64,000 nt of DNA. Origin: Candidatus Uhrbacteria bacterium RIFOXYC2_FULL_47_19 (GTDB lineage Bacteria > Patescibacteriota > Patescibacteriia > SG8-24). The stretch is from the NCBI GenBank assembly GCA_001791745.1, contig MGFG01000010.1, positions 3,351 to 67,350 of the forward strand, in the 5' to 3' direction. Made by a program: the position numbers and the translations under genes. Below, piece by piece: positions 8,515 through 51,020 of the stretch (its first letter is position 1; each line of letters starts with the position of its first letter). Below the pieces are notes generated by a model, which worked only from the letters and a program-made list of their open reading frames with translations, made no database searches and was not told the origin of the DNA.

Positions 8515-9699
8515 TCAATTCTTGAAACTGTTGATTGGAATCTGGGCAACTAGTTCTTCAACCGGCTCGGCTTGTGGTCGTAAGCCGTGATAGACACTGT
8601 CTACCAACCTAGCTACATCATCCCAGTGGTAATTCTCAACCACAAATTCCTTAGCTCCGGCACCTTTGCGTACTACCAGCTGAGGATTAGTGATCAAGAA
8701 AGTTAATTTGTCCTCGAGATCACAAACATCGGTGTTACGAAAATTAATACCGTGTGTTCGAGTGACTTCCACATTTTCCGGAATGTCTGAAGCTAGTACA
8801 GTCTTGCCATAAGACATGGCTTCCAAAATTACGATCGGCAATCCTTCAGATTCGGACGGCAAAATAAAGGCGTACGAATTCCTGAACAGACGATCATGAG
8901 GCGCACCTTGCAACGAACCGGTAAAAATAATATCTGAATCATCGGAGGCCATCTTCTTAATTTCAGCAACGTAATCATTAGTGAACGCTGAATCACCAAC
9001 AAAAACGAGCTTCAGATCACCAACCAATCTGCGCTTCTTCAAATTTTTGTAAGCCTCAATCAGATAGTGAGCACCCTTATGACGAACCAAACGTGACACC
9101 ATGAGCAAATAGCCATTCGGCTTCAAGCCATACCTTTCCAGAGTTCCATCGTCCTCGACGACAGCTTCGGGTTCGGTGATACCGTTCGGTATATACTCAG
9201 TTCGATTGGGATACAAATTGTCACAATAGGACTGCAGTGTTTTAGACACGACAATGGTCTTGTGCGGAAACGTGCAAGCAAACCGTTCGCCGAGCTTGAG
9301 CATGAGACGCGCAAACAAACCCCACTTCTGGTGCTTACGATCAATACAATGAAAAGTCGAAACCACTTTAATGCGAGGTGCCAACAATCGAGGTAACCAA
9401 GACATTAGTGATGGTCCGACACCATGATAATGAATAATGTCGGTTCCGGTAAAAATGGCGTGCAAAGTTGCGATGAAAGTATGAACAATAGCATCCAAAT
9501 TTTTAGTCTTGATGGTCGGCACAACAATCGATCGAACACCAACTGAAAAATTAGGATTGGATCGACCGTACCAAGCACGGGTATAGACCGTCACCTGATG
9601 TCCTGTCGAACCTAATCGCACAGCCAAAGACTCGACGTGTCGCTCAACACCGCCGAATTTAATCGGAATTCCCTTTTGGCCAATCATGGCGATACGCAT
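8515..9699 (-). CDS. glycosyltransferase family 4 (GT-B fold)
   Basis: N-terminus MRIAMIGQKGIPIKFGGVERHV. The C-terminal EGLPIVILEAMSYGKTVLASD matches the GT4 E-x7-E-like motif region. Start chosen at MRIAMIG (9699); the ORF-track M at 9786 is upstream. Confidence 0.7.
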   Translation of the reverse strand: MRIAMIGQKGIPIKFGGVERHVESLAVRLGSTGHQVTVYTRAWYGRSNPNFSVGVRSIVVPTIKTKNLDAIVHTFIATLHAIFTGTDIIHYHGVGPSLMSWLPRLLAPRIKVVSTFHCIDRKHQKWGLFARLMLKLGERFACTFPHKTIVVSKTLQSYCDNLYPNRTEYIPNGITEPEAVVEDDGTLERYGLKPNGYLLMVSRLVRHKGAHYLIEAYKNLKKRRLVGDLKLVFVGDSAFTNDYVAEIKKMASDDSDIIFTGSLQGAPHDRLFRNSYAFILPSESEGLPIVILEAMSYGKTVLASDIPENVEVTRTHGINFRNTDVCDLEDKLTFLITNPQLVVRKGAGAKEFVVENYHWDDVARLVDSVYHGLRPQAEPVEELVAQIPINSFKN

Positions 9700-9958
9700 A
9701 ATACTGATCGATCTTTTTGATGCTTCTAAATAACCGCATACTTTAGCATAAAAAGTCGTTTTTGTCAAGTCTTTACTCCAGCCCAAAGAGGTCTAAGTCG
9801 AAGTAAAATAATCACAATTTAACTCAAAAAATAGCCAAAATAAGCCAAAAAACTTTATACACAATCAATCCTTGGCCGTCAGCTAAATTTCAGTTATATT
9901 GTCTTTTGAATGTATACGCCCAATCCACAACCAATCGACCTAACAAATAGGACGCGAG

Positions 9959-9987
9959 TAGAGCGAGCCAGGGGGGCTCTTTTTTTC
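9959..9987 (+). terminator. intrinsic terminator-like hairpin in asnA-like leader (GAGCC-AGGGG-GGCTC + T7)
   Basis: GC stem followed by TTTTTTT, read from sequence. No upstream plus-strand CDS. Confidence 0.4.
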
Positions 9988-10083
9988 TACATACCTATTT
10001 TACCGAAATGGACGACCATTCGACCGGCGGCGATCAGTTGCTTGTTGGCCGATGGCATCGGCATCATTCCCTATCGTCGTTTC

Positions 10084-10111
10084 GACGGACTGACAACAGT
10101 CCGTCTTTTTT
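10084..10111 (+). terminator. strong intrinsic terminator/attenuator hairpin GACGGACTG-ACAA-CAGTCCGTC + T6, 40 nt upstream of asnA-like start
   Basis: Perfect 9-bp stem plus T-run, read from sequence. Confidence 0.6.
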
Positions 10112-10152
10112 ATCCTGCCAATTAACCCCAATTGGGGAATAACCAAAAACGT

Positions 10153-11211
10153 ATGAGCGAACAGCTGCGTCACATTATTCCAATCTTCTCTACCATGCGC
10201 GAGGCAGCGCACACCCATTATCGCAAATCTGGTTTGATCCACGTGCCAGCTCCGCAGATCGTCGGAATTACTGGCGCTTGTGAAAATGTAGACACATTAT
10301 TTCGAGTTGGTAGTCGTGTTGGAGCTCAACTCTTCTTCTGTCAAACCGGACAATTAAACCTCGAACAGGCACTCCAGTACAATCCAGGTGTTTACACCAT
10401 TATGGTTAGTGGACGTGATGAGGAAATTGAAGACGATCGCCACTTACGTCAATTCAATCTAGCGGAAGAAGAGTTCGATTGGTCATTCGTTGGCGCTGAA
10501 GGTGAAACCTACAACGAAGAAAGGATGTACCAGGCACTACTCGAACACATCGAAACAACGGTCAAATCCATCGCCACAACAACAGTGGATCGACATGCAA
10601 CACTACTAGCTGACCGCTTTGACCGAGATGTCTCAGGTCTAGCGAATAGTTTGACCCTCCCCTTCCATCGAATCAGTTATGAGGAAGCGATTAGTCTGCT
10701 GAACAAAAATGGTTTCCCACAACTCAGCTGGGGCGCAGATTTGAAATCAGAACATGAAGCGAAGGTTGTGGAACTACTAGCTGGTGGAGAAATGCCGCGT
10801 CCAGTATTCATCATGCGTTATCCTAAAGAGATTAAATTCTTCAACATGAAGGTTTCGGAATCAGATGATCGGGTAGCAATGTCGGCTGATCTAGTCTTTC
10901 CACGTGCTGGCGAAGGTGTCGGATCGGCGGTCCGCGAACACAACGCAACCAAATTAGAGCAACGACTACTTGGATCGGAAATGTATCGGCTACACCTAGA
11001 ACGCGGTGGCAAGCTCGAAGACTTCCGCTGGTATCTTGATCTAGTAGCTTCAGGCGAAACTAAACCGCACGCTGGCTATGGCATTGGTCTAGAAAGAGTA
11101 GCCCAGTACATCCTCGATCGATCGGATATACGTGAGTGCTCGATCTTTAACCTGATGGCAATGCAGACCAAAGACTGGGTAGTGCGTCAACCTGTACCAA
11201 TGATGGCCTAA
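10153..11211 (+). CDS. class II aminoacyl-tRNA synthetase catalytic-core paralog lacking an anticodon-binding domain (AsnRS-like; probable AsnA-type aspartate-ammonia ligase)
   Basis: PVFIMRYPKEIKFFNM resembles AsnRS motif 2 and GYGIGLERVAQYIL resembles motif 3. At ~353 aa there is no N-terminal OB-fold domain. Start chosen at MSEQLRH; the ORF-track M is 7 codons upstream. Confidence 0.55.
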   Translation: MSEQLRHIIPIFSTMREAAHTHYRKSGLIHVPAPQIVGITGACENVDTLFRVGSRVGAQLFFCQTGQLNLEQALQYNPGVYTIMVSGRDEEIEDDRHLRQFNLAEEEFDWSFVGAEGETYNEERMYQALLEHIETTVKSIATTTVDRHATLLADRFDRDVSGLANSLTLPFHRISYEEAISLLNKNGFPQLSWGADLKSEHEAKVVELLAGGEMPRPVFIMRYPKEIKFFNMKVSESDDRVAMSADLVFPRAGEGVGSAVREHNATKLEQRLLGSEMYRLHLERGGKLEDFRWYLDLVASGETKPHAGYGIGLERVAQYILDRSDIRECSIFNLMAMQTKDWVVRQPVPMMA

Positions 11212-11238: not shown

Positions 11239-11280
11239 GAAAATACGGAGTCGAATATTCGTTCGACTCCGTATTTATAT
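11239..11280. terminator. bidirectional intrinsic terminator between convergent genes (ATACGGAGTCGAA-TATTC-TTCGACTCCGTAT flanked by A/T runs)
   Basis: 13-bp stem, A-run upstream and T-run downstream. Confidence 0.6.
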
Positions 11281-24083: not shown

Positions 24084-24475
24084 TGGTGGAGATGGGGAGA
24101 TTTGAACTCCCGTCTGGTGAGTCGCTCCACGATACTTCTACCGATGTATTCCGTCTTGGTGTTTCGGGGTGGTGATGTTAGACGAACCAAACCCACCATC
24201 CCTATTTCCGTGCCAGGTCGGACCGCGCTACGGAAAGAGGCGCGGACCCAATCCGATATATGACACCCGGATCCCAACTATCGGACGTCGTTGGGTCGGA
24301 TGGGCATTCGGTTAAGCGAACGCCGAAGCGGTAACGGGCGAGAAAGCCGAAGCCATCGCGCTCTTCACCTTGCTGACAAAATTGGCGTGTATGTCATTGC
24401 CCTGAGATTTACGAGGTGCAGGCGCCCTCGACCGGCATATCGCGAAAGGATCTCCCATCGATCCCTGTCATCCCC
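24084..24475 (-). ncRNA. ssrA: tmRNA (SsrA)
   Basis: Minus-strand RNA starting GGGGAUGACAGGGAUCGAUGGG and ending ...GGGAGUUCAAAUCUCCCCAUCUCCACCA. A 7-bp acceptor stem GGGGAUG/CAUCUCC carries a G3:U70 pair (the Ala identity element). It has a T-arm GGAGUUCAAAUCUCC and a CCA end. It sits directly next to smpB. An internal frame ends ...GCUUCGGCGUUCGCUUAA (stop rc at 24312-24314). Confidence 0.8.
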
Positions 24476-38677: not shown

Positions 38678-41600
38678 TTAAGATGCTCCGCAAATGTACT
38701 GAAATATACTTTCGTACAAAGCATTGCTATTTAGCCCTGGCGTCGCATCTTCAACAACAGCTCCATGCTCGTCCAAATCAAAACTGATATACCTCTGTTC
38801 AGCCGTCAGCTGCGATCCGGTTCCGTCGTCAGTGGACGGAAGAGCAGGTAACCACAAAGGCTTGTAATCATTCTTACTAATAACGAACATCTCAACATAT
38901 CCACCATCAGAGCATCCTGTCAGAGTGCAATGTTTGGCTGCAGCAGTTACATCATCAAGTTGGATGGAGGCCAACAGGTCTTCAGGTGCACCGTATGTTC
39001 CAATTGGAGGTGGTTCATCACTAACGATTACCACATACGGCTGAGCATCATCTCGCCAGGCAATATCGTAATCCCATTCTCTTTCAATTCGCGGATCACA
39101 ACCGTCTTCCGGACTACAACTAACCATACCCGGTCTCATAAGAGCATAGGCTGCAGCATAAAGTGGTTCTTTTCCGCCTTTATCAATCTCACATCGAGTG
39201 GTCCGACGATCTGGAGTCCAACAATTGTCACGTGTTCCTTCCAGGTGACTATTAAAGTCACCCACACTACCTAACTGAAAGAACATATATTCATCCATCC
39301 TATCACCACCATCACTATAAGACTTCATCATGTTGAGTGTCTTCACCTCTGGCTGTCCTACCGTCACGTAACCAAACCGAAGATCTCTTCCTCTCTCACC
39401 ACTGAATCTAGCAACAAAATGGTTCAAGGATTCGATTAAAGAATCGATAATGCTATTCATTGATCCGGTTACATCAATAACGAACACCATGTCAATCTTC
39501 CGGTGTAGGTATGGGGGTAAATCATCGAAATCACCGTTACAGTTACCGTCGTCTTCGCAAAGCTGCTCACCAACCGGAACCACTAAAGTAGTCCCTGGAA
39601 TTCGATACTCTGGTCTAATTGATGGATCCAAACTACCACAATCCAGTTCATCTGGTACTCCATCATTATCATCGTCCGGATCACACTCATTCGGTAGCCA
39701 AGTTAGTGGAGTCTCCGCTAAACCGTCGGTTGCCCAATGTTGCCGGTCCAAACAAAACTCAAAAAGTGATCTGGGTGCACTGCCTGGCCGTCGATCTCCG
39801 ATTGGCGGAGCCTCACGCAAAACATCATAACTCACCATTTCACAAGACTCCCTGTTTTCGCTAGAGCTCCACAATATATCAAAATTACTAGAGGCGACAT
39901 AGTGACACAACTCAGAATCACGGTCAGCACAAGAATAATTACAACCACTCAATGAGCAAATACCATAACCGGTCTGTACGCCAAAACTCCTATCTTTGGG
40001 TCGAGTACTAACACAGACCCAACCATCACCAATAGGCGCACCGTGTGTGTCGCATTGTTCCGGACCAGGAGGCGACGAAGTTGCATTCTGCCTTTCACCA
40101 TCACCACAGTAGCCACCTGAAACCGTACCTAGTCGACAAGCCGAAGTGCAGTAATTACAAGTATGCCCGTACTCGGGTACGCAAGGCTCATTGTTTCTTT
40201 CACTACTATCACACATCTCTCCACCGGCTGCATTCACAAAACCATCACCACAAATATTGTTAACACAAGCACTGGTGCATGCGTCATTGTCTTCATCATT
40301 ACCATCATCACACTGCTCACCGGTCTCAGTCACACCGTTACCACAACGACCTGGGGCGGTACAGGACCAAGCACTCCAATTACAAGATTGATTAGGTGCT
40401 CCATCTCTATCATCCTCAATAGACGCCACATTGTTAGGATTGCAAGCTCGGTGGAACCTCTGCTCGACGGTTGGGCAGGTCACACAACGCTCCCCACCAG
40501 CCAGATTACAATCCGCATCTGCTGAACAAGTCCGACCTGATGGATGCAGCGGATCGACATCGACCGGTCGTCGACAGACACCACGACTCTCCTCGGAACC
40601 ACCATCACATTGCTCTGCACCGTTAACAATGCCATCACCACAATGTGGAGCCGAACCACGACAATCCCAGGAACAGGTAGCAAAATTAGCCCCAGTACGA
40701 TCTTCCCCAACTCCACAACCTCTGATCCCACCCGACGAAGCAATAACTGCATTAATTGCATAACGTCCATTCAAATCACGACAATCACATAGCTCACTAG
40801 GATGAGGCGCGCCATCGCCGCAAAAGAAGGTCGAACCACTACAAATACCATTACAATGTCCGTATGTACCATTGAGCGGCCCATCATCACAAATCTCAGC
40901 CCCTTGCCTTCGTCCATCACCACAGTAACCAATTCGACAGGTTCCGGGGACAACCTCCCAACCACGACAGTCTGCTGTACAAGCCTGTTCGACTGTCCCT
41001 CCTACACAAACACCATCAGCACCAGGTTCGGTCCGAAGATCCCCTAATTCACAAACCTCACCTGGATTGATAATACCGTTGCCACAACCAACTTCCTCAC
41101 TTTCCGACTCTCCGATACACATATCGGCGCCAGCATTTACTCCATAAGCTCGGAATCTAACAGTCTCGTAATTACAGCTTCCAGCTGGCGGAACACCATT
41201 CCAAACACAGCCAGGTGTTCTCCCACAAATTTCGCTTTCTCTTATCTCAATGCAAGTTGAGCCGATCCACCCTCCACCAACATATTCCATGTCCACAGAT
41301 AGATCAGCTTGACCAGCCAAAATCTGATATCGATAAATACTGGATCTAGCCCCACAACTAAACTGCCGACTAACCGAATTCCAACAAGTTTCCCGATCAA
41401 AACCATCATCAGGACAAGAAGTCAAAATATTTAGTGGATCAGACGGTATAGTTCGACCAACTGCTGAGGATAGTACATCGCCCCAGGATGGCCAGATACT
41501 ATAGGTTCTTGAACGTATATAAGTCCCTTCTCCTAGGGTTGGCAATGGACGATTGGCCATGAGTAGCGACCTCATTGTATGAAGGTCTGACCAACGACGT

Positions 41601-44600
41601 ACATCACGAACAAGCTTTGACTTAGAAACATTGCAAGTATCGTCGACACCACAATCACTATCACTGGAGCAAGTGATTGCTCTACCATCTACATCGAGTA
41701 CCGCCCGACCTTCATGTAGACAAATGAAAGTATCAACCAACTCAGGTTGCCGATTAAAATCAATGCGATCCATTAGTTGGTTAAAGACTGTAATAGTCTC
41801 AGGAGCTGCACCATCACTGAAGGAAAACACATTAATAATGGTTTCCAATTGTCTACCATCGCTCATCTTAGCTGAGTTAGCATAGACAGTCCGACCTTCT
41901 TTCAAAGCATCGTAACCATCAACACTAAACGGAGCTGGAGCACCAGTGAATCCACGATCGCGATACCAATCAATTACACCTAGATGCTTTGGATTTTTCA
42001 TTACCCGAAAGCCGATAGCGTCGTTACGCCAGGCATCATCTGCCCCGGCACCAGCAAAAGTAAAGAGGTATTCATGCTCGATATCTCCACCTGGAGAAAC
42101 TAAGACGAAATCATCATTAATAGCTGGTAGCAGATCGTCACCATCACCACCCGAAGAGTCACGACAATAGTAAAAGCTGGCCTTAGTTGCTGGATCAACG
42201 AATGGGTACCAGAACTTTTCAACTCCAGCCGTACAATCTTCACCATGAAGCGGATTAAGTATATTATCGGGATCCCAAGGTAGATGTAACCTCCCATCAT
42301 CACCACAAATCTGAACTTCCGGCCAGATGACGTCACAAAGTGCGACCGTAACTTTTGAATTACCCGGGAGTACGAACCCACCAGGTATGGGCAAGCGAGT
42401 ATGATCGTCAAGTAACGGCAAAAGGGAAGTAGATCCGTCAGGATTGACGGTGACTGCATTGACCAACACATCAACTACGCCGTCCTGCGGCACATACCCG
42501 ACCGGATCATCAGAAGTCTCACGCCCTCTAACTCTAACTGTCGCTTGTTCACTCTGTCGTCCTCCGACAGTAATTGGATTCAGTACGGCCGGAGAAACAT
42601 GCGGTGGACGTTCGGAAAGCGGTAACCATTCCCATGACCATGAGTACTCCCTAGTTGGGACAATCAAACTAACAGCCTCTCCGTCGAGGCGAATACCACG
42701 GTCGCTGGATACACCACGAGCCACAAGTGGCTTATCAAGAGTTTGCACATGGTTCAACAAAACCTCCGCAGGACTGACGATTACCTGATCAATGGCGCAG
42801 ATCAGGTCACCTGTGGTGAATTCTGCGGTCAGGCCAGCTGGGGCGACTCTTACTCCACCAACTGTCCTGGCATCCGGCTGAACTCTAACCCTGACCCGAG
42901 TACCTGCAGGAAGAGCGTGGTCCAACTTAAACTCAACTTCGGTCCTACCTTCCTCTGTCAGTCTAACGGTTATATCTCCAGTGACCGAACAGAAATGAGT
43001 ATGTGGAACCCCGATAGCATGTCCCAAAACAGGTCGACCAAATAGATCACTGAAAAATGCGGCAACAGTTGACCAAGCTCTGTGCAGTAGACCAACACGG
43101 CCGGCAGCCATTATTCCCAACGGAGCCGGAGGAAAAGGTGGAACTTCAATCACTCCACTTTCATCCGGAAGACCATCCAAACCCACCGGACAACCAACTG
43201 CTCCACTATCGACTCCGATCAATAAATTCTGAGTAATTGAAGTCGAATTCATGGGCTGATCAAATCCCAAGTGGATGGCAGTATTACGACAAATACCAAC
43301 TGAACCCTCAGCTGGATAGGTCAGCTCACCATGTGGCCTTGGTGCACAACAACCCGAATCAGCGCAGGCCAGACCAGCCAGTGGTCGTAGTCCGGCCGGC
43401 ACTCCGGCCAGCAATCCCGAGCAATACTCATCTGGATTAACCTGAGAACTGCAATTACAAGACAAAGTAACACGTGAAGTACCCCTCGATCTCTCCGGTA
43501 GTCGATCAATCGACGTATGAACTACACTCGTGGTTGCTACACCAACGGTCTCGTCGTAATCTCCAGCAACTGTAATTTGCCGCTTATCAATTCTTTCATC
43601 AGGCTCAACCTCATCGTTATCGCAGAAAGGATGCTCGCCCGGTCCACTAAATCCATCTCCGCAGAAAGAAGTGGTGCGATAAAAAGCCGATGAACCTTCA
43701 AACAGGCAACGACTACTGCAGCCGTCACCATTATCTGTGTTGTTGTCATCGCACTCCTCGCCGGGATCCAAAATATTGTTACTGCAGTCAGCGGGTAAAA
43801 CTGAGCCAGTCTTAGTACAAGAATGCAGATCACAACCCAACGCAACACCACCAGCTAGATCACAATCAGGATCCTCACCTGGTTCTATCCGAGCGTTACC
43901 GCACTGACTAACACAGGGTTCATCTTCTGGTGTAGCAATAGTGCAAATCGGCAAGGTTCCTTCATTAAGACAATCTGCACTGCAACCATCACCATCACGG
44001 CGGTTACCATCCTCGCAGGCTTCACCATCACCCAAGAACCCATCGCCACAAACAGACCTTCCAGCAGTAGATCCTAAGAAAATACAGCCAATACCGTTAA
44101 GCTCTGGCCGATCCTCAATATTGATATTCGGATCCTTGCAGCCCAACAGGAAGACAGAGATACCTTCAGCATCAGGCAGGGCTTCACACATTTCACCCGG
44201 ATCAAACAAGCCGTTACCACAATTCGGTGGAGCTGAGCCTTCCGCAAGACAGGATGGACTACAACCGTCATCCGGTCGAAGACCTCCATCATCACAATCT
44301 TCTCCACGCTCAGCTCGATCTCTGGCTGGACGCGGATCATCCGGATCGGTATTTCCGCACTGTGAAACCACATCAGTCGAACCTATCAATAGACACTGAC
44401 TATCACAGCCGCGTCTCGGTACAGGATTAGTGTCGACTCTGACGTCCATCCCAGTTTCAGAACCGACTTCCCTAGCCCTAATAAAACCAGTTAACACAGG
44501 ATTCGGATCGATTGACCAATCCCAATCATAACCCCAAGCATCAAGTTCCTGACCGTCAGGACTACACTCGTCGGCCGGTCCATACGCTCCGACATTGAGC

Positions 44601-47600
44601 CCAAGCCTCTCACTTACGTAACGTAAGGTAGCACTAGGTGGTATGATCTCTGCTCGAGAAATCTCACAAACACTACCATCAGTTTTAGTCCTAAACTTCC
44701 ACTCATAAAAACCAGGTACATTAAGTCCAGTGAGCGGTACATCACTAGTAGACAGGACCCCATCTGCTCCACCTCTGATTCTAACTTTATAAAAGGTGTT
44801 TGGTAGTAACATGAGACCTGGACCCAACACGATCCTAGCCTGCAAAGCCGCATCTGGATCGCCGGGTGGAAGCACACGAGCACCATCATCTCTAATCGAC
44901 TCAACCGAAAAACCTATTGGTATGTAAGGCGGGTTACATGACGCATTACGACACTGGAAAAATTCCACGTTGCCAGCAAAGGATCGTGCACTCATTGGTA
45001 TATTGAAAACCGCACCAATTTTTGCGTTAACACAAGCCTCGGTACAACCCTCGGTTGGCATGGTTCGTACCACCCGCGGATCAGCAAAAGCCACCGATAC
45101 CATCGAGATACCTCGACGCTCCAATAACTCGCCAGCTGGTCGCAGAGATGCGATTAACCTCTCTGGTGCATCGACTGGAGTCTCCAGTCGTCCGGTAGTC
45201 ATTTGTCGACAACCCACACCCCCGTCGCCAAGCAAACTGATAAAAACACCTGGATCGCTTGACCACCTCAAGTCAAAACCGACACGTCTAACGCATTGTA
45301 ATCGATTACAGTTGGCAATTCTCATCAAAGCAGCATTGAAACCATTAGTCGGATCTGCTGATGGACCTTGATGAGAGATCGTATAACGTGATGGCAAAAC
45401 CATTACATTATCAGCTGCACAAGCTGCACGATCAGCTCTTGTCTTGAATGTCCAAACGAAATTACCACCAGCTCGTCGATCATAGTCGCCGTCCAAATAT
45501 CGACCAGTTGCGTCTATAATACCGACTTCAGTGACCGGATCAGAAACTAAAGTAATTCGATACCAAGTATTAGGCTTAAAGTAACCAGTGAACGGTTCAT
45601 CTTCAGCATCATCAGGATCATCTGGTGGATAGGCTAGACTCGGGTGTATAGAAAGTATCGTCGCGGCTCCATCTGCTGTCAGATCCGTTTCGACTGGACG
45701 AGCAATCGGCACGAAACTAGGTTCTTTAGGACAGTCGATATCGCGACCACTACCGCATTCTTCAATAAGTAACGATTCCGGATCATTCAGTGAATCTATA
45801 TTCATTAATAAACTAAACTCCACGGCAGCCAAAGCATTACGACAAGCATCAGTTGCTCGTTGTTGCGGTGTGGGGCTCTGAATAGTGCCGGCCTCAAGAC
45901 TACAAGAAGCACGCTGCACAACTATAGGCAACGTTGGTAAAACGTCAGTGCTAAAAATCCAACCAAACTTACTATCTCGAGCTTCTGGTTCACAGGATTC
46001 ACGACATGAACCATTGGCACAACAAGTCGTCCCCTCTTCACAAATCCCATCGTCATTACAATCGCCAACCTTAAACGGAATCGGATTACGAGTAGCCACA
46101 TTACGAGCCACGGCAAAAACTGGACCAGAATTTGGCCAAGTATTTCTATCAGCGGGATTACCAGGGATCGCCGATCTAATAGAAGTCCTGGTCCAACCTA
46201 GATAGGCTGCTCCTGGTTTGGTGACCAAACCGTCCATCAAACCAGGAGCAGCTGCCGCTCCAGAAACGTAAAAACGAAGTGAATTTTCTGGTTGACGAGC
46301 ATCAAATCCGGCAAAACCGGGAGTATCAATATTGGCCGGACCTGGACCAAAACCTTCGCCTGATACTGTTACTGGTATACCCGGCTTACCATTATTAGGT
46401 GTAATCGAGCACATACCAGGCGCTATTGGACTGTCATCAACTAAGAAATCGACTCGATTGCTAACTTGAGCTGGAGCAGCTGTTTCGACCTCAATCCGGT
46501 GGAGTATACGAGAGACTGGTAAATCTCCAATATAATTTTCTGGCACTTTCACAACGATGTAATTGTCGTGCCAGTTATCGTCGCAGATCGGATCCACGGC
46601 AATAGCTGTATCAACTCCATCTGGTGATGAGATAAACCTCACTAATCCCTTACGTCGTCCAAAGCCACTACCACGCAAAGTAATATAAGAGTCGACTGGA
46701 CCAGAAGATGGAAGTATTTCAATGATTCGCGGTCCAACATCATCATCACGACGACGCAAGGTAAAATCGAGTTGATTAGTCGTAATGCCATCCAGACCAC
46801 CAACCATCACTGAAACCTGATAGACACCCTCAGGTAGAACTGCTGGAACAACGGCAGAAACAGCCGAGGCTGTCCAACCCCCACCAGTCACATCAGCGTT
46901 CACTCCACCCATTCTAATTAAGCTAGCACCCATGGCATCACCAAAACCGGCCCCATGAGCGATAAATCCATCACCAGCTGAACCGGTTGCCGGCTCCAAA
47001 TAGCAAATCCCGGGCAGAACCTCGTCATTAACAATAAAAGCACCAATCATCGGCTCAAATTCATCGTCAGTACGATCCGAAGTTCCAGAGGAAGTGACTA
47101 ATTGTAGAGGTCCTGTAACTACACCTTCTGGAATCGCAATCACCACCTCGTTGTCGGACCAGGACCAGGGTGAACAGGCAACCATTGACTTGTCATCATC
47201 ATCACCAGCCACCTCTCCATCACCATCTGTGTCACCTCCTAAGAAGATCACTTGCCCCATCGTGCCGCCAAAGAAACGCCCACTAATCGTCACCAAGGTC
47301 CCGGGTCCAGCCCTCAATGGAGAAACATCAAGTATCGTTGGTCGTTCCTTACATCGACCGGACTCTGGATCGCAAAATCCAGTAGCACAATCGGCATGAA
47401 CACGACAAGCATCGCCACCACAAGCACCACAACCGGAGTCCACTCCACAATCTATCCTCTCTTCTCCTAGCTCAGCATCCAGCTCACCATTGCAACAATG
47501 AGCAGGATTAATTCTAAACTTCTTGTCGATAGCTTCACTGGCCTGAGGTACACCATCGTAACCAACTGCAGATAAAATATGCTCACCATCAGCCAAACTC

Positions 47601-48733
47601 GAAGAATCAATGAAAACCGAATCAGATAAGAAAGGATTCTCTAAGGCAGCGTTAATAGTACTAAATAACGGCTCACCGTCAGCATCAGTTAAGTGAGCCA
47701 ACCCACCATCTAGCATAAAGTCGACTCGAGATGGTAGAAAATCATCCAAAACTCTAGCCCGAACACGGATACGATCCAAACAATAGGCCGGAGTTGAAGC
47801 TGGAGAATCAATCCTGATAGTCGGTGGCTCAACATCACGAAGATTGTTGAAAGCCATGGCCCGATCACACAAACTCGATAATGCACGCGGCGAAGAGATG
47901 TCGCCATCTGGACCCGGCGGTAGGAAAGGACAAACCAGAATCCGACCACGAACGTCAGTGACATCACCACCAAGCACTCGCACCCGATACCAGTAATCCT
48001 CTTCAAAATCAGTGGGGTGATCTCCTGGAGTATCCTTTGGTCTAAATATCACTCGATTAGCTTCAACTGTTCGATTTCCAGAAACTATGGTATCGCAAGC
48101 CCTCTCATTAAATGGAGCAGGATCTCCACCAGAGAGTCGTGAATTACATCTCTCCACTACAAAGGAAGTTCCACTAACAGTTGCTGCGGCGACCTCATGA
48201 CTAAAAGCAACAGTAATAGCGTAGTTCTTAGGCCAACCAGAATCACCAGGACCACTACCGACTGGAACCACACCAGAAACCTTAAAGCCACCAGAACCAG
48301 CTCCTGGTATACCGCAAACTTCTCCAGGTGGACAACGTCCACCTCCTGGCCCCACACCACCCTCGAGTCCGGTACCAGAGATTATCGCTCTCAAGATAAA
48401 CTGAGCAATAGCAAAGGCTGACATGATAATAATCAGACCTATGACCGCCTGAGTCATTACCCTCTTGGCACGACTGACTTGTTCTTCATTACCTTGGGCC
48501 GTCATCCAGAGAAAGCCGGCATACAAAATCAATAACACAGCCACTATGCCCAGTAACCCAAGAAAATAATTGACGATATTACCAATAATCGTCCGAATGT
48601 CGGTCGTACCCAGACCAGTCGATGTCGCATAATCCAGACCAAGATCGGTTTGCGCTAAAACCGGAAATACAAACAGAGCCACGCCAAAAACAATGGCTGC
48701 GGTAGTTGCTAATTTTTTCCGATTTATAAACAT
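38678..48733 (-). CDS. giant (3351 aa) surface protein: N-terminal TrbC/VirB2-like pilin anchor, IPT/TIG domains, many Cys-rich (Myxococcus-type CGDGx..GE.CDDGN..DGDGCS..C) repeats, C-terminal vWA domain
   Basis: A single uninterrupted 10 kb ORF. The N-terminus has two TM helices and YAGFLWMTAQGNEEQVSRAK. Several TIG-like segments (RPTILDVSPLRAGPGTLVTISGRFFGG; PRIIEILPSSGPVDSYITLRGSGFG). More than 12 Cys-rich repeats. vWA with DVTGSM (MIDAS-like) near residue ~3000. Confidence 0.7.
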   Translation of the reverse strand: MFINRKKLATTAAIVFGVALFVFPVLAQTDLGLDYATSTGLGTTDIRTIIGNIVNYFLGLLGIVAVLLILYAGFLWMTAQGNEEQVSRAKRVMTQAVIGLIIIMSAFAIAQFILRAIISGTGLEGGVGPGGGRCPPGEVCGIPGAGSGGFKVSGVVPVGSGPGDSGWPKNYAITVAFSHEVAAATVSGTSFVVERCNSRLSGGDPAPFNERACDTIVSGNRTVEANRVIFRPKDTPGDHPTDFEEDYWYRVRVLGGDVTDVRGRILVCPFLPPGPDGDISSPRALSSLCDRAMAFNNLRDVEPPTIRIDSPASTPAYCLDRIRVRARVLDDFLPSRVDFMLDGGLAHLTDADGEPLFSTINAALENPFLSDSVFIDSSSLADGEHILSAVGYDGVPQASEAIDKKFRINPAHCCNGELDAELGEERIDCGVDSGCGACGGDACRVHADCATGFCDPESGRCKERPTILDVSPLRAGPGTLVTISGRFFGGTMGQVIFLGGDTDGDGEVAGDDDDKSMVACSPWSWSDNEVVIAIPEGVVTGPLQLVTSSGTSDRTDDEFEPMIGAFIVNDEVLPGICYLEPATGSAGDGFIAHGAGFGDAMGASLIRMGGVNADVTGGGWTASAVSAVVPAVLPEGVYQVSVMVGGLDGITTNQLDFTLRRRDDDVGPRIIEILPSSGPVDSYITLRGSGFGRRKGLVRFISSPDGVDTAIAVDPICDDNWHDNYIVVKVPENYIGDLPVSRILHRIEVETAAPAQVSNRVDFLVDDSPIAPGMCSITPNNGKPGIPVTVSGEGFGPGPANIDTPGFAGFDARQPENSLRFYVSGAAAAPGLMDGLVTKPGAAYLGWTRTSIRSAIPGNPADRNTWPNSGPVFAVARNVATRNPIPFKVGDCNDDGICEEGTTCCANGSCRESCEPEARDSKFGWIFSTDVLPTLPIVVQRASCSLEAGTIQSPTPQQRATDACRNALAAVEFSLLMNIDSLNDPESLLIEECGSGRDIDCPKEPSFVPIARPVETDLTADGAATILSIHPSLAYPPDDPDDAEDEPFTGYFKPNTWYRITLVSDPVTEVGIIDATGRYLDGDYDRRAGGNFVWTFKTRADRAACAADNVMVLPSRYTISHQGPSADPTNGFNAALMRIANCNRLQCVRRVGFDLRWSSDPGVFISLLGDGGVGCRQMTTGRLETPVDAPERLIASLRPAGELLERRGISMVSVAFADPRVVRTMPTEGCTEACVNAKIGAVFNIPMSARSFAGNVEFFQCRNASCNPPYIPIGFSVESIRDDGARVLPPGDPDAALQARIVLGPGLMLLPNTFYKVRIRGGADGVLSTSDVPLTGLNVPGFYEWKFRTKTDGSVCEISRAEIIPPSATLRYVSERLGLNVGAYGPADECSPDGQELDAWGYDWDWSIDPNPVLTGFIRAREVGSETGMDVRVDTNPVPRRGCDSQCLLIGSTDVVSQCGNTDPDDPRPARDRAERGEDCDDGGLRPDDGCSPSCLAEGSAPPNCGNGLFDPGEMCEALPDAEGISVFLLGCKDPNINIEDRPELNGIGCIFLGSTAGRSVCGDGFLGDGEACEDGNRRDGDGCSADCLNEGTLPICTIATPEDEPCVSQCGNARIEPGEDPDCDLAGGVALGCDLHSCTKTGSVLPADCSNNILDPGEECDDNNTDNGDGCSSRCLFEGSSAFYRTTSFCGDGFSGPGEHPFCDNDEVEPDERIDKRQITVAGDYDETVGVATTSVVHTSIDRLPERSRGTSRVTLSCNCSSQVNPDEYCSGLLAGVPAGLRPLAGLACADSGCCAPRPHGELTYPAEGSVGICRNTAIHLGFDQPMNSTSITQNLLIGVDSGAVGCPVGLDGLPDESGVIEVPPFPPAPLGIMAAGRVGLLHRAWSTVAAFFSDLFGRPVLGHAIGVPHTHFCSVTGDITVRLTEEGRTEVEFKLDHALPAGTRVRVRVQPDARTVGGVRVAPAGLTAEFTTGDLICAIDQVIVSPAEVLLNHVQTLDKPLVARGVSSDRGIRLDGEAVSLIVPTREYSWSWEWLPLSERPPHVSPAVLNPITVGGRQSEQATVRVRGRETSDDPVGYVPQDGVVDVLVNAVTVNPDGSTSLLPLLDDHTRLPIPGGFVLPGNSKVTVALCDVIWPEVQICGDDGRLHLPWDPDNILNPLHGEDCTAGVEKFWYPFVDPATKASFYYCRDSSGGDGDDLLPAINDDFVLVSPGGDIEHEYLFTFAGAGADDAWRNDAIGFRVMKNPKHLGVIDWYRDRGFTGAPAPFSVDGYDALKEGRTVYANSAKMSDGRQLETIINVFSFSDGAAPETITVFNQLMDRIDFNRQPELVDTFICLHEGRAVLDVDGRAITCSSDSDCGVDDTCNVSKSKLVRDVRRWSDLHTMRSLLMANRPLPTLGEGTYIRSRTYSIWPSWGDVLSSAVGRTIPSDPLNILTSCPDDGFDRETCWNSVSRQFSCGARSSIYRYQILAGQADLSVDMEYVGGGWIGSTCIEIRESEICGRTPGCVWNGVPPAGSCNYETVRFRAYGVNAGADMCIGESESEEVGCGNGIINPGEVCELGDLRTEPGADGVCVGGTVEQACTADCRGWEVVPGTCRIGYCGDGRRQGAEICDDGPLNGTYGHCNGICSGSTFFCGDGAPHPSELCDCRDLNGRYAINAVIASSGGIRGCGVGEDRTGANFATCSWDCRGSAPHCGDGIVNGAEQCDGGSEESRGVCRRPVDVDPLHPSGRTCSADADCNLAGGERCVTCPTVEQRFHRACNPNNVASIEDDRDGAPNQSCNWSAWSCTAPGRCGNGVTETGEQCDDGNDEDNDACTSACVNNICGDGFVNAAGGEMCDSSERNNEPCVPEYGHTCNYCTSACRLGTVSGGYCGDGERQNATSSPPGPEQCDTHGAPIGDGWVCVSTRPKDRSFGVQTGYGICSLSGCNYSCADRDSELCHYVASSNFDILWSSSENRESCEMVSYDVLREAPPIGDRRPGSAPRSLFEFCLDRQHWATDGLAETPLTWLPNECDPDDDNDGVPDELDCGSLDPSIRPEYRIPGTTLVVPVGEQLCEDDGNCNGDFDDLPPYLHRKIDMVFVIDVTGSMNSIIDSLIESLNHFVARFSGERGRDLRFGYVTVGQPEVKTLNMMKSYSDGGDRMDEYMFFQLGSVGDFNSHLEGTRDNCWTPDRRTTRCEIDKGGKEPLYAAAYALMRPGMVSCSPEDGCDPRIEREWDYDIAWRDDAQPYVVIVSDEPPPIGTYGAPEDLLASIQLDDVTAAAKHCTLTGCSDGGYVEMFVISKNDYKPLWLPALPSTDDGTGSQLTAEQRYISFDLDEHGAVVEDATPGLNSNALYESIFQYICGAS

Positions 48734-48764: not shown

Positions 48765-51020
48765 CTAGATCGAACATAAATAATCTTCCTGACCATTCCG
48801 ATTACAACAGGAATTATTGTCTCCCATCGCGCAATTCCATCCGACACTAGGGAAAAAGCAATTCTGCAACGTATCTTGTATCTGGGCTCCAATAACCGGC
48901 TGATAGACTGGCAAACGTCCAGGCCATGAAACCATTTCTTCCATGGTGTAGCCCATGTCATTAGCGGTAAAGAAACCACGGTGCGTAATCATCATTCGAG
49001 TTACCATTTCATCACCAATCTCTACCGGACCTTCACCCAAATCCATGAAAAAGTAAGGTGGATCCAGCTGGATGTACGGACAGTCCTCGGCCGGATCAGA
49101 ACAGTCTTGATCCAAACTTTTCTTGGCTAATTCCTTAGCACGTAAGGCAATCGTTGTCCGGCCGTCAGAAAAAGCATTCCTAACCTCGTCGTATGCACCA
49201 GTCCGCATCGATCTGACACTCATTATCTTGTCCCATAAAACTGTTATCGGCAGATCGGTCGGAACTCGCGACGGTCCCTCTGGGTGATTCGGATGAAGTG
49301 GATCAACCGGTGGTGCGCTCTTGGGATCGATATCCATAACCGTTGGTGGTCTCAAATCGATCTCCTCACCAACATGATAAATCCATCTGGCTGTATCGTT
49401 GATACCTGCTAGAGCAGCTGGTGGATTATTCCGATTGAAATCAATTCGACGTTCCGCACTCTCTGGACCCTCGGCTGTCTCATTGCCGTTGCCGTCGAAC
49501 GAATTACCAACCATGTCCAACACACCATCCGGACGTGAAGCCTTGGGCGGCTCCGAACTTAAGGTTGCAGCCAAAGCACGTACTCGAATCTCGACGTTAC
49601 GCGGTAGGCAAAAAACTTGATTACCACAAGAATTCTCGGTAATACCCTCACATGGTTCACTAGGTACAAATTCAGCCGTCCGATAACGATTACCAATGTA
49701 AATCTTGCCAGAAATAGAGATGAACGACTCTCCATCACTGAAGTCACAATCCGTGTCCGGCAGACAACGAGCCTTTACCTCTATATTGGTGAATCCGCCG
49801 CCCTCGCCAATAATGCCGCTCACTGTGGTCGGATCAACCGCCTCATTAAAATAGATCTGTAGTAGTTGGTTGCGGGGCACTACGTCCGCCGGTCGACTAG
49901 GATCAATGACTGGTATCGGCACCACCGAGGTTATGTGTGGTGGTGTCAAATCAAGCATGGTTCCAGTCGTAAATGGCCAGAAGTAACCACCATCTGCGTT
50001 CATAGAAGTGAACGCATTTTGCTGATCTGGGTCAGCACTTTCAGTATCACTCGGCGACCAAACCTTGATACCATTGTCCCCTCCCCTAAGCGCTACGCGA
50101 TAGACAACATCAGTGGTTGGACTACCAATCGGAAGTGCCGGAGAGATGGTGATGGTTTGACCTTCAAGTGGATCAAAGGCTGCTGCCACAGCTGTAATTC
50201 GAACTGTGGGAGGTGGATCTACAAGTGCACCTTCATCCGGATATCTAGTATCGAACCGTTCATCTGGGCTGGAACCATCCATCCCCCCCAGTTCGGTTAC
50301 AGCGATAATCTTGAAATTATCGGTATTGAGTTGGAGGACTTCTGGCACCGCACCTCCGTCCACTGTGTCATCAGCGATATCGTAAGTCTCGGCGTCATCG
50401 TAATTACGAAAAACAGTCGACAGAACCAAGGGACGTTTAAAAGTAATCGAAATGTTTGTATTGCGCGGAACATCAATTTGTCCAACTTCCGGATAATGAT
50501 ATTCGATAATGCCATTACCTAACTCACCAGTTGGACCACCATGAGGCATCTCTCCCCATTCACGACCTCTGTCACCGCCCCCGGCACCAGGTACAATCGA
50601 GTGGCCAGTGAGCGCCTGAATAATAAAGGCAGTAATGGAGTAGGCCATGATCATAATGATCAACCCAATGGTCGTATTGGTAATAACCTTCTTAGCTTGA
50701 TCAACCTTAGCTGCGTCTCCCCGAGCAGTCATCCATAGATATCCGGCATAGATGTACAACAAGACAACAATGAATCCGAGTAAGGCAAAAAAGGCATTAA
50801 TCACTCGCCCAACAAAAACTCTTATGTCGGTCGTAGCTAGACCAGTTGCAGTAGCGAAGTCTAAACCAACATCGCTAGTAGTCATTTGTGCCGATACAAC
50901 TTCTGGCAAAAACAAAATCAGTAAAATAAAAGCCACCAAAACCGAGGTTCTGCTGGCATTCCGAATGTGCAACCAAGATCCTATCTTGAGTTGGTTGCGG
51001 GACCCATACCTTCCAAGCAT
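48765..51020 (-). CDS. 751-aa surface protein with N-terminal TrbC/VirB2-like pilin anchor (paralog of giant protein N-terminus)
   Basis: Its N-terminus DVGLDFATATGLATTDIRVFVGRVINAFFALLGFIVVLLYIYAGYLWMTARGDAAKVDQAKKV aligns with the giant protein's DLGLDYATSTGLGTTDIRTIIGNIVNYFLGLLGIVAVLLILYAGFLWMTAQGNEEQVSRAKRV. Confidence 0.6.
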   Translation of the reverse strand: MLGRYGSRNQLKIGSWLHIRNASRTSVLVAFILLILFLPEVVSAQMTTSDVGLDFATATGLATTDIRVFVGRVINAFFALLGFIVVLLYIYAGYLWMTARGDAAKVDQAKKVITNTTIGLIIMIMAYSITAFIIQALTGHSIVPGAGGGDRGREWGEMPHGGPTGELGNGIIEYHYPEVGQIDVPRNTNISITFKRPLVLSTVFRNYDDAETYDIADDTVDGGAVPEVLQLNTDNFKIIAVTELGGMDGSSPDERFDTRYPDEGALVDPPPTVRITAVAAAFDPLEGQTITISPALPIGSPTTDVVYRVALRGGDNGIKVWSPSDTESADPDQQNAFTSMNADGGYFWPFTTGTMLDLTPPHITSVVPIPVIDPSRPADVVPRNQLLQIYFNEAVDPTTVSGIIGEGGGFTNIEVKARCLPDTDCDFSDGESFISISGKIYIGNRYRTAEFVPSEPCEGITENSCGNQVFCLPRNVEIRVRALAATLSSEPPKASRPDGVLDMVGNSFDGNGNETAEGPESAERRIDFNRNNPPAALAGINDTARWIYHVGEEIDLRPPTVMDIDPKSAPPVDPLHPNHPEGPSRVPTDLPITVLWDKIMSVRSMRTGAYDEVRNAFSDGRTTIALRAKELAKKSLDQDCSDPAEDCPYIQLDPPYFFMDLGEGPVEIGDEMVTRMMITHRGFFTANDMGYTMEEMVSWPGRLPVYQPVIGAQIQDTLQNCFFPSVGWNCAMGDNNSCCNRNGQEDYLCSI

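Follow-up and report, generated by a model that had tools for sequence, protein, structure and literature searches.

A stand-alone asparaginyl-tRNA synthetase-like core behind a two-terminator leader in Patescibacteria: a probable pyrimidine-pathway enzyme under pyrBI-like attenuation

What does the catalytic core of a tRNA synthetase do without an anticodon-binding domain, and why does its gene follow two transcription terminators? The question is raised by a gene, here called X (as is its family), in a stretch of 64,000 nucleotides (nt) from Candidatus Uhrbacteria bacterium RIFOXYC2_FULL_47_19 (GenBank contig MGFG01000010.1, positions 3,351 to 67,350). The whole stretch is called the window, and unlabelled positions refer to it; L and P numbers are labels of family or comparison loci and of family proteins, respectively. 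Gene X (10153–11211, plus strand, ATG to stop) encodes a class IIb aminoacyl-tRNA synthetase (aaRS) core. A first-pass annotation likened it to the AsnA-type asparagine synthetases and saw in its leader the attenuator of an amino-acid biosynthetic step. We arrive at a different answer: judging from sequence comparisons, X is probably a pyrimidine-pathway enzyme derived from asparaginyl-tRNA synthetase (AsnRS) and regulated by attenuation of the kind known from Escherichia coli pyrBI. The link of the family to pyrimidine synthesis as such is very likely; literature searches found no publication on family X or on this link.

The open reading frame (ORF) is intact and codes for 352 amino acids, one fewer than first annotated. 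The AsnRS kinship claimed for the protein was borne out: Pfam tRNA-synt_2 matches it with an E-value of 2e-33, and the best NCBIfam match is the AsnRS model PRK03932 (176 bits, far short of the cut-off of 414; profile positions 127–445 of 451), with the other AsnRS model, TIGR00457, scoring 169 bits against a cut-off of 342.6. Because the AsnRS profiles are matched over their catalytic part only (~127–450 for both models), the N-terminal OB domain is missing, as the annotation had it. The AF2 structure model (pLDDT 88) consists of the class II catalytic core alone, without an OB fold; Foldseek ranks AsnRS structures first, with that of Pyrococcus horikoshii (PDB 1x54) at the top (TM 0.78, 31% identity), which is also the best PDB sequence match (E 6e-29). 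The cryptic anticodon-binding domain that the annotation had allowed for is thus absent from the model, and X is intact and conserved across the family, not a pseudogene.

The alignment to AsnRS structures (1x54 and Thermus thermophilus 5zg8) assigns Pro34 to motif 1, residues ~79–107 (VYTIMVSGRDEEIEDDRHLRQFNLAEEEF, SGRDEEIEDDRHLRQF) with Arg88 to motif 2, and GYGIGLERV with Arg315 to motif 3. The annotated motif 3 was therefore right, while PVFIMRYPKEIKFFNM, proposed as motif 2, lies elsewhere in the protein. Like AsnRS, X has the core fold, motifs 1–3, the acidic Mg-binding residues, a QxGQ element and WYLDL. Arg88 aligns to T. thermophilus Arg208, and Glu105 and Arg261 align to Glu225 and Arg368, which we take to be the residues reading the Asn amide; this pair is kept in X. 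Asp246 and Glu254 are invariant and align to conserved acidic positions of AsnRS (taken here as the putative Mg site), and QTGQ, likewise invariant in the family, aligns to the QSGQ of AsnRS. Residue 70, presumably the position of the Asp-binding Lys in the QSPQLFK motif of AspRS, is an invariant Leu. Unlike AsnRS, where motif 2 reads FRAE...RHLxEF, X reads SGRDEE-ED-RHLRQF, and the acidic loop (EExED) argues against binding of a tRNA acceptor end. The active-site residues are invariant in a family with a mean column identity of 53%, and those needed for adenylate formation are so across more than 25 divergent members. Given these conserved residues, Leu70 and the acidic loop, X appears to be active in forming adenylates and to bind an Asn-like ligand, not the acceptor end of a tRNA.

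An AsnA-type enzyme, making Asn from Asp, NH3 and ATP under an Asn attenuator, would share the general concept: AsnA, both bacterial (PF03590) and archaeal (AS-AR, P. abyssi 3p8t), is a class IIb core without anticodon domain that adenylates a free amino acid, and the architecture of archaeal AsnA is that of X, an AsnRS/AspRS core. The ATP site of X is intact, the Glu105/Arg261 pocket could accommodate a flipped Asp by its alpha-amino-acid head group, and Asn could be the true precursor of the pyrimidine ring. The AsnA profiles, however, do not recognise X: PF03590 gives no match at E≤1 in the Pfam search, the archaeal AsnA models (NCBIfam PRK06462 models) score 25–69 bits against cut-offs of 309–389, and 3p8t is a marginal match (E 3e-5) covering residues 211–332 only, the C-terminal third. 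Neither does the invariant Leu70 suit it, as AspRS and AsnA bind the carboxylate with a Lys there. Together with a genomic context, fusions, synteny and regulation that point to pyrimidines and not to asparagine, set out below, this makes an AsnA identity improbable.

A homolog search returned hundreds of close relatives in Patescibacteria, of 340–370 or of 470–517 amino acids, the longer ones bearing a C-terminal MGS-like domain (94 of 163 family members have it; the window copy does not). A pattern scan of species-representative genomes confirmed 196 loci, 80 of which were retrieved, mainly from Gottesman-, Roizman-, Woese-, Levy-, Beckwith-, Uhr- and Nomurabacteria and their relatives. At 90% identity, the window protein falls into one cluster with a hypothetical protein of Candidatus Uhrbacteria RIFOXYC2_FULL_47_19, and its closest relative, in locus L001, is 86% identical.

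Neighbour clustering across 80 metagenome loci showed that the gene directly downstream of X is most often that of dihydroorotate dehydrogenase (DHODH), followed by those of orotidine monophosphate (OMP) decarboxylase and orotate phosphoribosyltransferase (PRTase). Where enough sequence was available, pyrD lies immediately downstream in 43 of 124 loci, and pyrD, pyrF and pyrE were found in 59, 39 and 37 of 163 loci, against one locus with carA/carB and two with pyrB. Many family members are thus the first gene of an X-pyrD-pyrF-pyrE(-pyrG) operon; on one 194-kb contig, the order is CBS protein, X-MGS, DHO_dh (pyrD), OMPdecase (pyrF), PRTase (pyrE) and CTP synthase (pyrG), and the PRTase is PyrE, scoring above the TIGR00336 cut-off. 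Within the clade of the window copy, pyrD adjoins X in L090 (Uhrbacteria, 69% identity), L007 (66%) and L009 (59%), and L090 and L007 also have pyrE beside X.

The association extends to gene fusions. An exhaustive search among representatives found P0121, a fusion of X, MGS, DHO_dh and PRTase, on three contigs, and P0125 joins X, MGS and DHO_dh. The MGS domain itself matches the C-terminal allosteric domain of CarB (positions 937–1049 of the carbamoyl-phosphate synthetase large-subunit model TIGR01369) and is 32–35% identical to residues ~920–1060 of patescibacterial CarB. In CarB, this domain binds UMP, IMP and ornithine. X thus resembles CarB and CAD in bearing a homologue of the CarB allosteric domain and in being fused, in some members, to the next enzymes of the pathway, as in CAD or UMPS; it differs in that the domain sits on a synthetase core instead of ATP-grasp domains and is absent from the window copy.

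Synteny indicates which step could be concerned. Canonical patescibacterial operons in our comparison read atp operon-carA-carB-pyrB-pyrC-pyrD-pyrF-pyrE-pyrG (L173, and likewise L158, which has X in addition) and carA-carB-pyrB-pyrC-pyrD-pyrK … pyrF-pyrE-prs-pyrG-rplS (L175), and X-type operons, such as L083, atp operon-(CBS)-X-MGS-pyrD-pyrF-pyrE-pyrG-rplS; the ATP synthase epsilon gene is directly upstream in eight of the latter (L013, L016, L083, L098, L104, L108, L135 and L143). As the two types are syntenic, X-MGS holds the slot of carA-carB-pyrB-pyrC. Among the at least 120 PyrB relatives listed (down to 47% identity), none is on the X-MGS contigs of 0.77–1.23 Mb, which is only suggestive. 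The DHODH of some X-type operons is 55% identical to that of canonical operons, which argues for true dihydroorotate as the product of X. Other X-type operons have a highly divergent DHO_dh of ~350–360 amino acids with an N-terminal extension (L083 11502–12557; L013 3751–4860), 21–26% identical to canonical PyrD and far under the cut-offs of the DHODH models.

Several further proteins recur in these operons. In at least six loci (L083 9404–9871, L013, L016, L078, L108 and L135), the X-MGS leader is immediately preceded by the gene of a CBS-pair protein of ~155 amino acids. A protein of 474–487 amino acids without Pfam or NCBIfam match takes the place of pyrD directly after X-MGS in five loci (L018 1710–3173, L021, L026, L042 among them). 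In some proteins of the Gottesmanbacteria type, a domain of ~470 residues is fused N-terminally to X (L158 8585–9985; P0123, residues 1–460; P0132, residues 1–495); it has no Pfam match, a homolog search with the domain alone came back empty, and in L158 and P0123 it shows no similarity to the 487-residue protein found downstream of X in the five loci. In Berkelbacteria (CP066697.1; L085 10001–12602), a short-form X immediately precedes the gene of a full-length lysyl-tRNA synthetase, with OMP decarboxylase, adenylosuccinate lyase and SAICAR synthase genes within 7 kb. In L007 (2986–3354), the X frame is broken after 122 codons, with similarity continuing to residue 344; this is either a pseudogene or an assembly error.

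The same context bears on a minimal AsnRS, that is, an X that would charge tRNA-Asn with its anticodon-binding domain missing or provided in trans. In its favour, the residues recognising Asn are preserved, as is the ATP site, and the 64-kb window contains no other AsnRS gene (nor any for pyr enzymes, AspRS or GatCAB). The acidic motif-2 loop speaks against such a function, as do the fusions of X to a CarB allosteric domain, DHODH and phosphoribosyltransferase and its place in pyr operons; the neighbourhood of X shows no recurrent gene for an OB-fold partner, and no tRNA genes are adjacent. We consider this possibility barely credible.

What might the enzyme make? X would be a stand-alone AsnRS-derived core binding ATP and an amino acid of the Asn/Asp type without acting on tRNA; as an adenylate-forming enzyme, it would hand DHODH dihydroorotate or its immediate precursor and, in many lineages, stand in for carbamoyl-phosphate synthetase, aspartate carbamoyltransferase and dihydroorotase, with feedback control through the CarB-derived allosteric domain where this is fused to it. 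That X supplies dihydroorotate or its precursor is a proposal to which we give just short of even credence. We put forward somewhat more tentatively that X, with or without a neighbouring amidohydrolase, may be a new entry enzyme of de novo pyrimidine synthesis, forming dihydroorotate directly from Asn or Asp, CO2 or bicarbonate (with or without NH3) and ATP via an aminoacyl-adenylate. One possible route leads from Asn-AMP to an N-carboxyanhydride and on to ring closure by the side-chain amide. Carbamoyl phosphate would be bypassed, and one protein of ~350–500 amino acids would do the work of CarA, CarB, PyrB and PyrC in many Patescibacteria.

Amidohydrolases accompany X in more than one setting. 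They flank it in Patescibacteria, where the PRK06886 type was found in 14 loci and a PyrC-like type in four. X-like proteins without anticodon domain, 35–48% identical to X, also occur outside the phylum (e.g., in Psychrobacillus, WP_375220472.1) and have the motifs TGACEN, QTGQL, IKFFNM and PHAGYG in common with X; in two of these distant relatives, the gene is part of a conserved cluster and directly upstream of one for a dihydroorotase (DHOase)-like amidohydrolase. The recurrent pairing would fit a chemistry around a ureido or cyclic-amide intermediate, and the PRK06886-type protein is a candidate ring-closing partner or salvage enzyme. PRK06886 itself is named “hypothetical protein” in NCBIfam and is related to cytosine deaminases (e.g., L051 144–1139, minus strand; also L066, L143, L160 and L162). 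The cluster of the distant relatives (L170 1913–13496, Psychrobacillus sp. PGGUH221; L171 485–11628) lies beside integrase/resolvase genes and comprises, in order, genes for a ~485-residue protein of no known type, NUDIX, NAD-epimerase, DegT aminotransferase, ATP-grasp, a second such protein of ~490 residues, the X-like synthetase core, the DHOase-like amidohydrolase and a PEP-utilizer-like protein; its role could lie in natural products, modified nucleotides or defence.

Some observations weigh against a pyrimidine entry enzyme. L158 has X (the copy fused to the ~470-residue domain) between pyrC and pyrD of a full canonical set, and L025 has X together with pyrB and a pyrC-like gene; as both systems are present there, displacement is not universal, X could be accessory, and the notion that it always replaces CarAB, PyrB and PyrC was rejected. 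Of the 44 loci in which X is flanked by 4 kb or more on either side, 26 have no pyr gene nearby, the window and L001 among them, and most of these 26 have short forms without MGS. The conserved residues binding the alpha-amino group, finally, leave a substrate geometry for ring formation hard to see.

The full set in L158 would also suit a non-catalytic regulatory subunit like HisZ or PyrI, sensing Asp or Asn, ATP and, via MGS, UMP or IMP and modulating DHODH or other pyr enzymes. HisZ, a paralog of HisRS without anticodon domain that regulates HisG, is the precedent for a synthetase paralog recruited in this form to a biosynthetic pathway, and the fusion of X to an allosteric-type domain is in keeping with such a role. 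HisZ has lost catalytic residues, whereas X keeps the catalytic Arg, Glu and Asp, and the invariance of its adenylate-forming residues speaks against a purely regulatory function. Moreover, X-MGS holds the slot of four catalytic genes, X-type operons would otherwise be without a source of dihydroorotate, and stand-alone copies, such as the one in the window, adjoin no partner. A regulator is thus about as improbable as AsnA, and catalysis in the pyrimidine pathway remains the reading that we favour.

We turn to the leader. A consensus scan placed a promoter-like site at 9872–9900 on the plus strand (TTGGCC-17 nt-TATATT). A leader ORF of 71 codons (uORF; 9910–10125, plus strand; from the ORF list) starts ~10 nt past the −10 box, hence our calling it leaderless-type, and ends 27 nt before the ATG of X. 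It spans two intrinsic terminators on the same strand, the presence of which the first-pass annotation had correctly reported. T1 (9965–9986) is a 5-bp hairpin, GAGCC-AGGGG-GGCTC (9965–9979), followed by T7, and is a candidate first attenuator or pause site; T2 (10084–10111) is a 9-bp hairpin, GACGGACTG-ACAA-CAGTCCGTC (10084–10105), followed by T6, and is the candidate main attenuator. T2 folds at −16 kcal/mol (z −4.5), and its U-tract ends at 10111, 41 nt before the ATG. No other gene start in the window lies behind two closely spaced coding-strand terminators, and the GAGCC-N3-6-GGCTC hairpin occurs once in it.

Could the hairpins belong to something else? As annotated, no plus-strand gene precedes the leader: the upstream gene, for a GT4 glycosyltransferase (8515–9699), is divergent from X. 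Because it is on the minus strand, T1 and T2 are not its terminators, and its transcript, which had been considered as their possible source, does not account for them. Glycosyltransferase genes flank X both in the window and in L001; the GT4 gene, however, is absent from L001, yet the leaders align, and the co-directional gene upstream in L001 has a third terminator of its own. Terminators of an upstream gene were on these grounds rejected, and so was a tRNA or small-RNA gene as their source, no tRNA being found next to X in 60 loci. The leader proved to be conserved, as the annotation had asked to be checked: L001 keeps the −10 box, the start region TTCGAATG, T1 with the same stem, and T2 in place with a different stem sequence. 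The position of T2 with differing stems is also kept in L003–L006, L088 and L096, and the −10 box is followed by a conserved TTGAATG/TAGATG in L001, L003–L008, L088, L090 and L096.

Across the family, at least one coding-strand terminator was found upstream of X in 69 of 79 loci (87%) and at least two in 28 (35%); for 966 other genes of the same loci, serving as control, the figures are 7.8% and 0.3%. The terminators upstream of X are more frequent than by chance. The leaders vary in length (~60–250 nt), with U-tracts of U5–8 after T1 or a hairpin called H1 and U6–9 after T2. Those of the long forms consist of a TTGACA-17-TAnnnT promoter, hairpin H1, an AT-rich spacer and a GC hairpin with U7–9 just before the start codon. 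H1 has a Shine–Dalgarno (SD)-like purine run as its 5′ arm and an ATG in its loop, and a U-run often follows the hairpin; its arms vary widely yet stay complementary (CCAGG/CCTGG, CTAGGAG/CTCCTAG, TCTCAGAAG/CTTCTGAGA, CTCGGGGGT/ACTTCCGAG). The pairing comes from a per-sequence hairpin search, as RNAalifold on a MAFFT alignment, in which the arms are misaligned, gave no structure. In the window clade, the ATG is leaderless-type, 7–10 nt after the −10 box, and the uORF stays open for 38–72 codons through T1, to end at, in or after T2 (L001, L003–L006, L088 and L090).

In 91 distinct leaders, we followed the ORF that opens with the first ATG downstream of the −10 box, with the +1 and +2 frames as controls. 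The uORF reaches the last terminator in 86 of the 91, against 12 and 38 in the +1 and +2 frames. Its stop falls at that terminator (counted as anywhere between 13 nt ahead of the stem and the last U of the U-run) in 61 leaders; 25 uORFs run through and five end earlier. The stops cluster 1–9 nt before the stem or in the loop, and the median length is 18 codons. No runs of Asn or other codons were found in the uORFs, Asn making up 6.4% of residues and NN occurring in four of the 91 peptides; an Asn-codon leader peptide was thus rejected, which also counts against an AsnA attenuator and against the annotated control of an amino-acid biosynthetic step. In amino-acid attenuators, the terminator is >20 bp from the leader stop and in pyrBI it is inside the leader ORF; in E. 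coli, termination fell from ~90% to <10% once a stop codon 28 bp ahead of a terminator was brought to within 5 bp of it, and repression was lost at distances beyond ~27 nt (PMC4824070). E. coli pyrL (L168 3534–3400) accordingly contains its hairpin (3446–3427) and U8.

Since the uORFs of X stop near the terminator, these data and the pyrL anatomy suggest that the X leader is a ribosome-occlusion attenuator of the pyrBI type and, for want of Asn runs and with stops abutting the terminator, not one of the trp/his type, in which codon runs and a longer distance would be expected. Transcription would start at or beside the AUG, ~10 nt past the −10 box. A ribosome translating the uORF close behind RNA polymerase would cover the 5′ arms of T1 and T2, and polymerase would read through into X; with translation lagging, the hairpins and U-tracts would terminate transcription. 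The leader would thereby report how closely the first ribosome trails the polymerase. With E. coli pyrBI (pyrL) and pyrE, the X leader shares a leader ORF overlapping an intrinsic terminator with a long U-tract, a second hairpin and U-rich element upstream, the lack of regulatory codon runs and a pyrimidine operon under control. It differs in that the uORF usually stops 1–9 nt short of the stem or within the loop, and two full terminators are present in many X leaders; in the window clade the start is of the leaderless type, and in the long-form clade SD and AUG lie inside H1. There is no sequence similarity to pyrL. Attenuation of X dependent on the uORF is, on this evidence, likely. Sensing of UTP, the supply of which would set the distance between ribosome and polymerase, is suggested by the long U-tracts, the pyrimidine context and the E. 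coli analogy, and is possible, if more doubtful than the attenuation itself.

The annotation had offered transcription attenuation, a T-box or a riboswitch as alternatives, of which the first is retained here as likely. No T-box or other Rfam family matched at gathering thresholds in the window and 20 loci; the T-box model RF00230, in agreement with the annotated lack of its consensus, and the PyrR site model RF00515 gave no match at E≤10 in window positions 9650–10250 and seven related loci. Indeed no Rfam family at all matched the window leader at E≤10, and the matches at this threshold in related loci are at chance level and driven by the terminators. With no conserved aptamer either, a T-box, riboswitch or other known RNA was rejected. 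An antiterminator made of RNA only was rejected, too: minimum free energy folds give weak competing hairpins, and the z-score of the whole window leader is −1.9.

Some points count against ribosome occlusion: T1 alone is weak (z −0.3); transcription–translation coupling is, to our knowledge, unstudied in these bacteria; and the sequence-conserved GAGCC/GGCUC stem could be a protein-binding site instead. The last leads to a leader controlled by a trans-acting RNA-binding protein (PyrR-like, another, or X itself) that would recognise GAGCC/GGCUC and CCAGRG hairpins, without the ribosome. The GAGCC-N4-GGCTC stem is conserved in sequence and near-exclusive to X leaders, 24 of the 25 GAGCC-N3-6-GGCTC hairpins in 484 kb of loci lying within 250 nt upstream of X genes, and the CCAGRG of the H1 5′ arm is like the PyrR consensus UCCAGAGAGG. 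The PyrR site model is, however, unmatched, no PyrR-like gene recurs next to X, and the uORF stop is placed very differently, with respect to the terminator, from the stops of the control frames, for which a protein-only model offers no reason. We therefore hold such control to be rather unlikely, and a ribosome-occlusion attenuator the better account of the leader.

Some features of the leaders may be recorded in their own right. In the window, a small palindromic hairpin, CCCCAATTGGGG (10127–10138), directly follows the uORF stop codon (10123–10125), and its 3′ arm is the sole SD-like element (GGGGAA) before the start of X; L001 has a different but complementary pair, CCCAC-AAA-GTGGG, in the same place. 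The hairpin could be a translational-coupling element. T-runs separate the −10 box from the uORF ATG (9901–9909 in the window, with equivalents in L003–L008): CTTTTGAATG, CATTTTTGAATG and TTTATTTTAGATG; we take them to be like the initially transcribed T-tracts of E. coli codBA and upp, with their UTP-dependent reiterative transcription. In L089 (~560–800), tandem-repeat blocks, ~5 × CCACCGTAGCCTTGCCGTGC and ~8 × GGTGGGGCGAA/GGTGGGGCAAA, stand between the leader terminator and the start of X, and the two repeat units are partly complementary to each other.

Elsewhere in the window, a strong 16-bp terminator hairpin (11241–11276, plus strand; −23.5 kcal/mol, z −6.0) marks the end of the X transcript and sits between convergent genes. 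Rfam RF00023 identifies a tmRNA gene at 24084–24475 on the minus strand (123.5 bits), which ARAGORN did not report. A giant ORF of 3351 amino acids occupies 38678–48733 on the minus strand, and beyond it, at 48765–51020, are more large ORFs without Pfam match.

If it is true that X feeds DHODH, ultra-small and widespread bacteria would make the pyrimidine ring without carbamoyl phosphate, by a reaction new to central metabolism and a new function of a tRNA-synthetase core. The “incomplete” nucleotide pathways of candidate-phyla genomes would then read differently, and organisms scored as pyrimidine auxotrophs may not be such. The hypothesis on X is directly testable, as the protein is small and soluble-looking and the candidate substrates are simple. 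The leader, for its part, presents a clean, testable case of putative ribosome-occlusion attenuation in a phylum in which gene regulation is almost unstudied, and the leaderless-type uORF of some clades suggests that transcription and translation are coupled in these bacteria.

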